A stretch of DNA of 20,004 bases, from IMG/VR virus record IMGVR_UViG_2698536418_000005; one strand, 5' to 3'. The notes below the pieces were generated by a model. The model was not told where the DNA came from. It ran no database searches and was given only the letters and a program-made list of their open reading frames with translations. How positions within the stretch are numbered: the first letter of the stretch is position 1; every line of letters starts with the position of its first letter. Shown here in pieces: positions 17,369-19,953 of this stretch. A program made the translations under genes and the position numbers. The DNA comes from a virus. Lineage: Duplodnaviria > Heunggongvirae > Uroviricota > Caudoviricetes.

Positions 17369-18076
17369 ATGGATTTGAACAAATTCGATGAGCCATTCAG
17401 CCCTGAAGATATCGAATGGCGAATACAGCAAAGCGGTAAAACACGCGATGGCAAGGTGTGGGCTATGGTGCTGGCTTATGTCACGAACCGGGCAATCATG
17501 AAACGCCTGGACGATGTTTGCGGCAAAGCAGGATGGCGCAATGAATACCGCGATATTCCCAACAACGGCGGCGTTGAATGCGGCATATCAATAAAGATTG
17601 ATTCCGAATGGGTAACCAAATGGGATGCTGCTGAAAACACGCAGGTAGAAGCCGTCAAAGGTGGTCGTTCCGGTGCAATGAAGCGCGCTGCCGTTCAGTG
17701 GGGAATCGGTCGGTATCTGTATAACCTTGAGGAAGGTTTCGCACAAACATCTCTCGATAAAAAGCAGGGGTGGCACAGGGCAAAACTGAAGGATGGAACA
17801 GGATTTTACTGGCTCCCTCCATCGCTTCCGGGATGGGCAATCCCAGCATCAGATAACAAACCATCACCAGAAAATACCAACCAGAAATCTCCATCGGTTG
17901 ACTGCGAACAAATCCTGAAAGACTTCAGCGATTATGCGTCAACAGAAACTGACAAGAAAAAACTCATCGAGCGTTATCAGCGTGACTGGCAATTAATGGC
18001 TGGCAATGAGGATGCGCAGGCTAAATGCGTTCAGGTAATGAGCATCAGAGTTAACGAACTAAAACAGGCGGCATAA
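17369..18076 (+). CDS. Single-strand annealing recombinase (Rad52-family SSAP), Bet-analogous position
   Basis: 235 aa; GAGGTGA RBS; Rad52-like core with VQWGIGRYLYNL motif; directly followed by ssb. Confidence 0.65.
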   Translation: MDLNKFDEPFSPEDIEWRIQQSGKTRDGKVWAMVLAYVTNRAIMKRLDDVCGKAGWRNEYRDIPNNGGVECGISIKIDSEWVTKWDAAENTQVEAVKGGRSGAMKRAAVQWGIGRYLYNLEEGFAQTSLDKKQGWHRAKLKDGTGFYWLPPSLPGWAIPASDNKPSPENTNQKSPSVDCEQILKDFSDYASTETDKKKLIERYQRDWQLMAGNEDAQAKCVQVMSIRVNELKQAA

Positions 18077-18583
18077 ATGGCAAGCAGAGGCGTAAATAAG
18101 GTGATTATCCTTGGTCGGGTAGGACAAGACCCGGAAGTTCGATACTCACCATCAGGAACAGCGTTCGCTAACCTGACAATAGCCACGTCAGAACAATGGC
18201 GAGATAAAAATACTGGCGAGCAAAAGGAATTGACTGAATGGCATCGTGTTGCTGTATCCGGGAAACTGGCTGAGGTCGTGGGGCAGTATGTGAAAAAAGG
18301 TGATCAGATTTATTTCGAGGGAATGCTGAGAACCAGAAAGTGGAAAGACCAGTCAGGGCAAGACCGTTACACAACCGAGGTTCATGTCGGAATTAATGGC
18401 GTGATGCAGATGCTTGGCGGCATTGGCGACAGCAAACAACAAGCAGCCAGCAGGCAATCACAGAAGCCACAGCAGCAATCATCACCAGCACAACACAACG
18501 AACCTCCGATGGATTTTGACGACGATATACCCTTTGCACCAGTAACTCTCCCCTTCCCTCGTCACGCTATTCACGCAATTTAA
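18077..18583 (+). CDS. ssb: Single-stranded DNA-binding protein SSB with C-terminal extension
   Basis: 168 aa; N-terminal OB fold matches E. coli SSB as recalled ([18 protein letters not shown]...TEWHRV...GQDRYTTEV), Gln-rich linker, acidic DFDDDIPF motif, then 15 extra residues ([15 protein letters not shown]) before the stop. Confidence 0.9.
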
Positions 18584-18596
18584 TCAGGAGAAAATC

Positions 18597-18893
18597 ATGC
18601 CAGCGCCTCTGTATGGTGCGGACGACGCGCGCCGCTGTTCCGGCAATTCCGTATCGGAGGTGCTGGATAAATTCAGAAAAAACTACGACCTGATAATGTC
18701 GCTACCGCAGGAAACGAAAGAGGAAAAGGAATTTCGCCACTGTATATGGCTTGCAGAGAAAGAAGAACGCGAGCGAATTTACCAGACATCAATCCGACCA
18801 TTCCGCAAAGCCACATATACCCACTTCCCTGAATATATCGACCCGCGCCTGCGTAATTACCGCTCACGCTATGGCGCTATCAGTAATGACTGA
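18597..18893 (+). CDS. Hypothetical protein (98 aa)
   Basis: ATG with AGGAG RBS about 7 nt upstream; no recognised motif. Confidence 0.5.
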
Positions 18894-18903
18894 GGAATTT
18901 ACC

Positions 18904-19071
18904 ATGAGAGGACTTGCATACAATCCCGGAATTCTTCCGGCAGAAATGATTATTCGCCAACGCGTAAAGCCAATGCCATCGATAGAGGAATTGCTTAAGA
19001 GAAATTCTTTTCCATCAGTGAATCAAAACAAATATCTGAATGCGATGTGGCGTAAAGGAGGCAAGCAGTGA
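18904..19071 (+). CDS. Hypothetical small protein (55 aa)
   Basis: Internal ATG of track ORF 18751..19071 with GAGG RBS about 8 nt upstream; the earlier part of the track ORF overlaps the preceding gene. Confidence 0.4.
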
Positions 19072-19322
19072 GTAATTCCGCACGACTACAGCTTGGTTTT
19101 TCACCGCTATCAAAAACTATCATGCTGGCAAAAATGCGCGATGTTGAAGGTGGACGTATGCGCGTTGGCAATGATCCAGGTCGTGATGTTACCAATGAGG
19201 CTGCTCAATTGGTGTGGCGACTGGTCATGGCTGAAGGTGGTGAGATCGCGTGGGAGCTGGATGATGGTTCTCGCATGGTGTTGAAGGCAGAAAAGCAGGA
19301 GGCAACCAGTGAGCAAGATTGA
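19068..19322 (+). CDS. Hypothetical protein (84 aa, GTG start)
   Basis: Track ORF; start overlaps preceding stop, stop overlaps next gene start (operon packing). Confidence 0.45.
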
Positions 19323-19953
19323 TTATCAAAAGCTTCGTGAAATCGCTGAAAAAACAAAAATTGCCGGTGAAGCACCTGTAATGCCTTGCGATCAGCGAAT
19401 TAATGCGCTTAACGATTTTATGAAGCACTTTTCGCCAGATATCGCGCTGGCATTGTTGGATGAACGGGAAAGAAACCAGCAATACATCAAAAGCCGCGAT
19501 CAGGAGAACGAGGATATTGCGCTTACGGTTGGGAAGCTGCGCGTTGAGCTGGAAGGCAAAGACAGCAAAATAGCCAATCTTACCGCCGAACGCGATGCTC
19601 TTCGTGAAGGTGAGATGGGCGACGCTAGGCATAGCAACACACGGGCCGCAGCTGATATCTACTTCCAACTGGTCGAGGAGTGCGAAATTCCTGCTGGCGG
19701 TTCTCTGGTCGAGTACGTTGACGATATGCGCGAGAAGCTGGAAGCCGCAGAGAAGCGCATTGCAGAGTTAGAAAGTGGTTCTCAGGCACAAAAGTTAGTT
19801 GAAGCAATCATTGTTGCGATAGAAAACGAACAGGAAAGGCTTTTTGATGAAGATTACCTAATGGATTCGAAAGAATGCATTGACGTAATTCGTGAAGAAG
19901 TAAAGCGATGGAATGATTCCCGCGCCGCTGGCATTCGCATCAAAGGAGAGTGA
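19309..19953 (+). CDS. Ea22-like coiled-coil protein
   Basis: 214 aa, GTG start; heptad-rich coiled-coil segments (EKLEAAEKRIAELES...); resembles the ead/Ea22-like family common in lambdoid PL operons. Confidence 0.5.
   Translation: MSKIDYQKLREIAEKTKIAGEAPVMPCDQRINALNDFMKHFSPDIALALLDERERNQQYIKSRDQENEDIALTVGKLRVELEGKDSKIANLTAERDALREGEMGDARHSNTRAAADIYFQLVEECEIPAGGSLVEYVDDMREKLEAAEKRIAELESGSQAQKLVEAIIVAIENEQERLFDEDYLMDSKECIDVIREEVKRWNDSRAAGIRIKGE

Follow-up and report, generated by a model that had tools for sequence, protein, structure and literature searches.

A conserved extension beyond the DDDIPF tip of mobile-element SSBs, at an insertion site of HNH endonuclease genes

INTRODUCTION

[quoted passage not shown] The Escherichia coli protein has the canonical end DDDIPF, which we confirmed in PDB entry 1eqq. 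Partner proteins dock onto the last residues of SSB and hold the terminal carboxylate with a basic residue; in RecO, it is Arg132 that anchors the carboxyl end of the SSB C-terminal peptide (SSB-Ct) (PMC3152348). What, then, does an SSB do in which more protein follows the last phenylalanine of this tip?

The question is raised by a 20,004-nucleotide stretch of DNA from a virus of the Caudoviricetes (IMG/VR record IMGVR_UViG_2698536418_000005), here called the window. The first-pass annotation described an SSB whose DDDIPF is buried under a 15-residue extension, and the list of open reading frames (ORFs) and the sequence itself both bear this out: 18077..18583 on the plus strand is a single SSB ORF of 168 amino acids in which DFDDDIPF is followed by 15 further residues. 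The range originally singled out, 18530-18583, corresponds to P152-F153, the extension, and the stop codon.

RESULTS

An accessory SSB in a lambdoid recombination module

The SSB, its parts, and its two neighbors are laid out as follows.

17369..18076, plus strand: Rad52/Rad22-family single-strand annealing protein, 235 amino acids (PF04098, E=5e-26)
18077..18583, plus strand: ssb gene, 168 codons plus TAA (PF00436; phrog_44, E=2e-66, residues 1-167)
18092..18421, plus strand: OB-fold DNA-binding/tetramerization domain, residues ~6-115 (Pfam and AlphaFold2)
18422..18511, plus strand: short, disordered linker rich in Q, S, and P, residues 116-145 (pLDDT <50 from residue 115)
18512..18535, plus strand: internal canonical SSB-Ct tip DFDDDIPF, residues 146-153 (sequence)
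18536-18580, plus strand: 15-residue extension, residues 154-168, with the TAA stop at 18581-18583 (conserved in 112 of the 120 best homologue clusters)
18597..18893, plus strand: abc2 anti-RecBCD gene (PF11043, E=4e-62; annotated as Abc2 in HK75, mEpX2, and Sf6)

The protein has the PF00436 OB fold of an SSB (Pfam match over residues 6-104, E=1.6e-36), followed by a disordered linker and an acidic DDDIPF (residues 116-153); what it lacks is the tip phenylalanine as the C-terminal residue with a free carboxylate, as 15 residues follow F153. It shares with the E. coli chromosomal SSB the OB fold, the disordered linker, and an identical 11-residue segment, and the overall identity is 61%, calculated against an E. 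coli sequence whose C-terminal 12 residues were confirmed in PDB 1eqq. In contrast to the E. coli protein, its tip is internal with 15 conserved residues after the phenylalanine, its linker spans about 30 rather than about 55 residues, and its gene is an accessory prophage copy. Among homologues, the linker is the most variable part of the alignment.

The ATG of ssb abuts the TAA of the upstream annealing-protein gene, and abc2 lies 13 nucleotides downstream with its own AGGAG ribosome-binding site. The annealing protein also matches phrog_1097, "Erf-like ssDNA annealing protein" (E=1e-129; PHROGs), and its HK75 counterpart is annotated as a recombination protein. The gene order annealing protein, ssb, abc2 is the same in HK75, mEpX2, and Sf6, and a position between an annealing protein and an anti-RecBCD gene in the pL operon is that of SSB-1 in lambdoid Rec modules (PMC12315714). 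The earlier description of a prophage SSB beside an annealing protein is therefore upheld, with the Rad52-like protein, SSB, and Abc2 together in a lambdoid recombination module. By gene content and order, the locus is the recombination module in the pL operon of a lambdoid prophage, matching the HK75 annotation, and the window ssb is an intact accessory SSB of that prophage. Portal, terminase, lysis, and nin genes are encoded elsewhere in the window on the opposite strand, and this remaining part has a mosaic structure when compared with the nearest prophage in E. coli.

Two further observations concern the surroundings and the SSB family. Downstream of abc2 lie ORFs at 19309-19953 (plus strand; 214 amino acids, acidic and coiled-coil-like) and 19068-19322 (plus strand; 84 amino acids), in a region that is mosaic with respect to HK75, Huey, and the E. 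coli PM7 prophage. In addition, the C-terminal end of PHROG 2544, a 362-position profile with no assigned function, matches SSB residues 117-153 (window 18077-18535), which suggests that an SSB-like linker and tip is present in a further family of phage proteins.

Recurrence of the extension

As the alternative to a genuine extension, the first-pass annotation had named an error at the stop codon introduced by sequencing or assembly. Phages, prophages, and plasmids share the same frame in hundreds of independent sequences, a recurrence far beyond chance by which the error reading is refuted and its probability becomes negligible. Near-identical DNA over the whole query is present in 6 phage records, HK75, mEpX2, and Huey have 98-99% identity over the stretch from ssb to abc2, and the ssb gene alone is 99% identical to those of HK75, mEpX2, and mEp235 in nucleotide comparison and 89% identical to those of Salmonella phages epsilon34, g341c, and NM-3. 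At least 80% of the query is present in 272 of 5,426 complete E. coli genomes.

The comparison with homologous prophage SSBs that had been proposed as a check gave the same answer at the protein level: of the 120 best clusters, whose identities range from 66 to 93%, 112 keep an extension of equal length and pattern. The hosts of the clusters with extended SSBs are Klebsiella, Citrobacter, Enterobacter, Salmonella, Kluyvera, Phytobacter, and Pluralibacter. A programmed frameshift at CCC TTT G, which could have yielded a short form of the protein, was rejected, as the zero frame does not read X XXY YYZ and the nucleotides vary among homologues.

The tail motif across phages and plasmids

The extension, here also called the tail, has the core motif IPF-AP-[VI]-[TG]-L-[PQM]-[FY]-[PG] followed by 6 or 7 mostly hydrophobic residues, and it always forms the extreme C terminus. 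A search limited to one genome for each species yielded 80 loci, 12 of which encode extended SSBs; the remaining SSBs listed from this search, chromosomal ones included, all stop at IPF. At the six extended loci whose flanking ORFs were read, these are of phage or recombination type (integrase, Erf, RecT, RdgC-like, DnaQ-like). The extended SSBs of Providencia, Proteus, and Moellerella end in ..DDIPFAPIGLPYPRHAIYVI, and others were found in Enterobacter, Lelliottia, Oceanisphaera, a Vibrio plasmid, Pseudoalteromonas, and Glaciecola. When viral contigs were retrieved with a degenerate DNA pattern for FAPIGLQYP, all 25 carried the tail at the end of an SSB-type protein, and the SSBs of marine phages of Vibrio and Alteromonadales share the motif. 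A profile search confined to the C-terminal 44-58 columns returned extra tail variants, all on fragments of at most 83 amino acids.

The SSBs of F-type plasmids end at DDDIPF. The enteric type of the tail is present in 105 plasmid records, 89 of which are typed as conjugative, and the marine type on 17 Vibrio or Aeromonas plasmids. The SSB of the IncN plasmid pTR4 has the same extension as the window; the neighbors of its gene are repA and antirestriction genes, and no recombinase is close by. Like the products of the leading-region ssb genes of F, pED208, and ColIb, it is an accessory SSB of a mobile element. The tail sequence type tracks the clade of the host (Enterobacteriaceae, Morganellaceae, and the marine orders) rather than element type or gene neighborhood. 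Judged by this distribution, the extended tail, which occurs in many Gammaproteobacteria, is a variant of the SSB C terminus specific to mobile elements among the SSBs sampled. For one plasmid SSB, that of pED208, a role has been reported, in that it suppresses the SOS response that is induced by mating (PMC8406263).

The same survey bears on the idea, put forward in the first-pass annotation, that the extension favors the adjacent annealing protein. More broadly, the tail might be a docking site for a partner encoded by the phage itself, either this annealing protein or Abc2, between whose genes ssb is located. Such docking would parallel the compatibility between single-strand annealing proteins (SSAPs) and SSBs, which is set by the last 7 SSB residues that SSAPs read (bioRxiv 10.1101/2020.04.14.041095), and the last 6 residues of the HK620 SSB (HkaK; NDYPPF) are likewise needed for stimulation of its cognate annealing protein Sak4 (PMC5928155), although this SSB is of another type, with a canonical-like PF end and no extension beyond the phenylalanine. 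The presence of the tail on either SSB or an HNH nuclease of the module, described below, also recalls Red-beta, which binds both Exo and SSB-Ct. However, the same tail occurs beside four unrelated families of annealing proteins (Rad52-like, Erf, RecT, and Bet), beside RdgC-like ORFs, and on the IncN conjugative plasmids with their repA and antirestriction neighbors, so that the annealing protein or Abc2 is unlikely to be its partner. Abc2 is absent from some modules with the tail (L158), among them the Bet-Exo-HNH-SSB module of Providencia phage PSTNGR2lys, whose divergent SSB (142 amino acids, 32% identity) ends in EWEDDIPFAPIGLPYPRHAIYVI, and the Rad52-like protein also pairs with SSBs that have no extension (Sf6, Huey). 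The suggestion of a preference for the adjacent annealing protein was thus not sustained, and we regard docking of a phage-encoded partner as distinctly unlikely.

Several observations touch on the limits of the motif. Three viral contigs of 117-139 kb (L242, 506-531; L249, 2289-2314; L244, 544-569) encode proteins with the non-canonical N termini MNTFKIIQQEVPKE.. and MTKFSGTIEKLYVKY.. and ends of the form ..YWDNDIPFAPIGLQYPQLLWSM-stop, and these may represent the tip-plus-extension unit on another DNA-binding core. Different extensions after DDDIPF, IPF[IL]GHGYGVCRKAIYAIS-stop and IPFQNEFRHYKMLSYVAA-stop, are found in P0190, P0209 (Pantoea and others), and P0219, which share with the tail a hydrophobic end similar to ..AIYAI and lack the AP-x-GL core. 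A prophage module with a Rad52-like gene, a 171-amino-acid extended SSB, and a 3'-5' exonuclease is present in NZ_CM135829.1 (L267), labeled E. coli DH5alpha, and extended SSBs may therefore occur in common cloning hosts.

HNH genes at the boundary between tip and extension

Relatives in which a stop codon directly follows ..DIPF, which the first-pass annotation would have taken as a sign of a local error in the window, do exist (Sf6, Huey, and ES18), but an HNH gene is inserted and the tip recoded in these phages, and the conclusion of a local error does not hold. Two further features are needed here.

18508..18538, no strand: empty insertion site of free-standing HNH genes, probable homing target, recoded in occupied alleles
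18539..18583, plus strand: 14 codons plus stop, shared with the 3' end of HNH genes (Sf6, Huey, and ~75 other loci; DNA alignment)

In Sf6, the SSB (gp27) ends in ..MNFDDSDIPF-stop, and the next gene encodes gp26, an HNH endonuclease of 159 amino acids, before Abc2 follows. No Pfam domain was found in gp26, and its HNH family was given by PHROGs. The last 14 residues of gp26 are those of the window SSB, and the DNA of Sf6 and the window is the same from CCAGTAACT (window 18539) through abc2. Relative to the window, Huey has a 438-nucleotide insertion at 18535, with 9 mismatches within 18508-18537 and 14 other mismatches scattered over the surrounding 1.6 kb (>99% identity); the insertion codes for an HNH protein 48% identical to Sf6 gp26.

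A census of about 155 IMG/VR loci found the site occupied in about 78 and empty in about 77. Wherever the HNH gene is absent, the SSB carries the tail, with the gene order SAP-SSB-Abc2 at 42 loci and SAP-SSB-DnaQ-Abc2 at 31. Where it is present, the SSB ends in DDSDIPF, DDEIPF, DDLDIPF, or DDPDIPF, never in DDDIPF, and at most of these loci the nuclease has the C terminus ..KPIYPDE[EA] followed by the 14 tail residues. Neither protein has the tail at a minority of HNH loci, namely those of several Sf6-type HNH relatives and the ES18-type loci. A link of the extension to the downstream DnaQ-like exonuclease was considered and rejected, as 42 of about 75 extended-SSB loci are without it.

Other states of the site were also observed. 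ES18 gp47 (L269, 2310-2831) and the locus L082 (2734-3231) have a third, unrelated HNH protein of 165-173 amino acids, similar to T7 gp7.7, at the same ssb/abc2 junction; here the SSB ends in DDEIPF-stop, and the tail and the usual start of abc2 are replaced. In Klebsiella phage phiKp_30 (L159, 2350-2553), the HNH gene has decayed, and remnants (MKICSRCH.. and an orphan tail) are left in unannotated DNA between ssb and the gene of a DnaQ-like exonuclease.

The comparison thus finds endonuclease genes present or absent at one exact position and changes of the flanking target in occupied alleles, as expected of an empty allele and its occupied counterparts. We conclude from these alignments that free-standing HNH genes have an insertion hot spot at the boundary between the F153 codon and those of the extension, with the window as the unoccupied allele. 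The presence/absence polymorphism, the recoded target, the several nuclease families at one site, and the decay together probably constitute the signature of a homing-endonuclease gene, with cleavage by the nucleases being putative. Free-standing homing endonuclease genes of the T4 mob/seg type insert into or next to conserved phage genes, and they share with the present site the presence or absence at one position, the recoded flank, the multiple nuclease families, and the decay by deletion. The difference is that insertion here appears to move a conserved C-terminal peptide to the nuclease ORF. Sf6 and ES18 otherwise have the same SSB family and the same module order of annealing protein, SSB, (nuclease), and Abc2 as the window, whose site, unlike theirs, is empty and whose SSB is tailed.

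To which protein did the tail belong originally? The profile of the HNH family (phrog_2340) stops at residue 143, before the tail, while that of the SSB family (phrog_44) aligns through residue 167; some HNH relatives end in ..YPEDLEAA or ..YGEAA without a tail; and deep SSB variants carry the extension without an adjacent HNH gene. On these grounds, the tail is best read as native to the ssb lineage and as captured by the nuclease ORF upon insertion. The opposite history would make the extension a neutral by-product, whereby an ancestral ssb ending in DIPF-stop and followed by an HNH gene lost the nuclease in frame, was fused to the last HNH codons, and then traveled as a mosaic passenger. 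That the identical 14-codon segment closes HNH genes, that such genes decay by deletion (phiKp_30), that enteric phages show almost no variation in their tail DNA, and that the extension is dispensable in occupied alleles would all agree with this history. It does not explain why the HNH family profile stops short of the tail, why the extension is found on very divergent SSBs (such as that of PSTNGR2lys), in marine phages, and on plasmids with no HNH gene on that side, or why the amino acid pattern survives many synonymous changes, and we consider it very unlikely.

Selection on the tail and its predicted structure

The last of these points comes from a crude Nei-Gojobori count on 14 short, diverged alleles, in which the pN/pS of the tail is 0.30 for the enteric and Morganellaceae alleles (45 pairs) and 0.18 for the marine ones (6 pairs). 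Between the window and pTR4, 9 of the 15 tail codons have synonymous differences and 2 have replacement differences. Many synonymous and few replacement changes point to purifying selection on the tail at the protein level, as far as counts from such short sequences allow. Within E. coli and Salmonella phages the argument from conservation is weaker, since in this region (window 18533-18583 and homologous loci) the 45-nucleotide tail DNA is almost invariant, more uniform than the neighboring tip codons, which indicates recent mosaic spread. The tail segment has spread as a mosaic unit with the start of the downstream gene (compare the matches to query positions 423-574), and its uniformity may stem from co-conversion during HNH homing or from the spread of a mosaic boundary segment.

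The tip is under even stronger constraint, with a pN/pS of ~0.015 for DFDDDIPF, which is nearly invariant in homologues though internal. This would be accounted for if the extension were a pro-peptide, with cleavage after F153 in vivo freeing the canonical DDDIPF-COOH at a controlled time; the occupied alleles would then encode the short form directly. A leaving group, however, has no need of 15 specific, conserved residues, and we know of no protease or precedent for such processing of an SSB, so that this explanation is scarcely probable.

An AlphaFold2 monomer model from a 50-sequence alignment has a confident OB beta-barrel over residues 8-115 (strands of the E8-E115 block, pLDDT 70-87), with a pLDDT of 32-41 for residues 115-168. 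According to this model, the extension is part of the disordered tail and would act as a short linear motif. That the tail docks intramolecularly on the OB fold is not supported by the monomer model at these pLDDT values, and the idea was set aside; a PDB sequence search with tip plus tail matched only the canonical tip and no chain with the extension. A beta-clamp-binding motif, the consensus of which we take to be QL[SD]LF or QLxLx[LF], was likewise rejected: by eye, the hydrophobic positions of P-V-T-L-P-F and P-I-G-L-Q-Y are similar to those of Hda QLSLPL, but the resemblance is weak, and position 1 is proline, never glutamine, in the variants seen.

DISCUSSION

Our results lead us to propose that burial of the tip disconnects the element-encoded SSB from the host interactome and that the added motif binds a different, conserved factor, which is probably encoded by the host; we assign this reading a probability of roughly 0.45. 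With the carboxylate of F153 no longer free, DDDIPF would be unable to dock in the usual way in the pockets of ExoI, chi, RecO, PriA, RecQ, and other host proteins, and the SSB of the element would coat single-stranded DNA without recruiting the interactome of the host SSB. The specific, conserved sequence of the tail argues that it is more than a cap and should bind something, and the added short linear motif may accordingly be read by another conserved factor. The correlation of tail type with host clade points to a host-encoded partner, the simplest candidate being a factor that each clade of hosts has conserved. The intermediates of phage recombination, and plasmid DNA entering in single-stranded form, would then acquire a set of partners distinct from that of the host SSB.

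Published data bear on the first of these steps. Earlier SSB fusions apparently required a wild-type ssb copy for viability (PMC7293020), and from such fusion data the extension likely abolishes the docking of host partners that depends on the carboxylate. The expectation in the first-pass annotation of altered host-partner docking through a non-terminal phenylalanine therefore agrees with the literature, in which it was obtained on constructs other than this extension. The restriction of the extension to accessory phage and plasmid copies, and its absence from the housekeeping SSBs sampled, also fits a loss of docking by the capped tip.

Three observations run against our reading. If the tip were simply disabled, one would not expect the internal DDDIPF to be nearly invariant. 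Phages that combine an HNH insertion with an extensionless SSB are common, and the SSB of the module can therefore do without the extension. Finally, the tail on the nuclease also looks constrained, and a pure cap leaves this constraint unexplained. Each of three ideas, a degron, a single bipartite motif of 20 residues, or proteolysis of the extension, would account for some of this combination of an invariant tip with a tail that is dispensable on SSB and constrained on the nuclease.

As a degron, the hydrophobic end of the tail (..AIHAI, ..IYVI, ..LLNCM) would mark its carrier for turnover by a conserved protease of the host, for example ClpXP, ClpAP, FtsH, or Lon, and so limit the level or lifetime of the element-encoded SSB or nuclease. 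Much of what we observed is compatible with this, as the tail is disordered, always at the extreme C terminus and always non-polar at its end, portable between two unrelated carriers, SSB and the HNH nuclease, and independent of neighboring genes in phages and plasmids alike. Its end also bears some resemblance to the MuA sequence RRKKAI, in which AI comes after a basic stretch. On the other hand, the best-conserved part is the proximal AP-x-G/T-L-x-Y/F-P while the last residues vary, an LAA end of the ssrA type is not matched, and the constant position right after DDDIPF in SSBs is left unexplained, and we therefore consider a degron unlikely.

A more speculative possibility, to which we would give only tentative credence, is that tip and tail together form a second SSB tail code of phages and plasmids throughout the Gammaproteobacteria, a bipartite motif of ~20 residues (DDDIPF, AP-x-G/T-L-x-Y/F-P, and a hydrophobic end) that would both disconnect the protein from its usual host partners and link it to one specific, conserved host factor, with homing HNH genes making use of the junction, splitting the motif and bearing its distal half on the nuclease.

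No description turned up in a literature search by peptide string and for prophage SSBs with a C-terminal extension, most subscription journals being outside its coverage; as far as searched, the tail motif and likewise its plasmid form are undescribed, and the HNH insertion site is a new finding. The SSBs of Sf6 and ES18 are described as experimentally unstudied in the 2025 survey of lambdoid Rec modules, in which the analysis of partner-interaction domains was deferred (PMC12315714). The Sf6 record states that gp26 [quoted passage not shown] an annotation puzzle that is explained by capture of the tail.

The insertion site itself defines a hot spot for putative homing endonucleases, at which three nuclease families share one codon boundary. 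In recombineering, the SSB tip determines the hosts in which a given phage annealing protein functions, and in the design of such experiments prophage and plasmid SSBs should not be equated with the host SSB. If our reading is true, the tail of mobile elements shows how phages and plasmids coat single-stranded DNA without engaging host nucleases and mediators or, alternatively, how they recruit a different factor.
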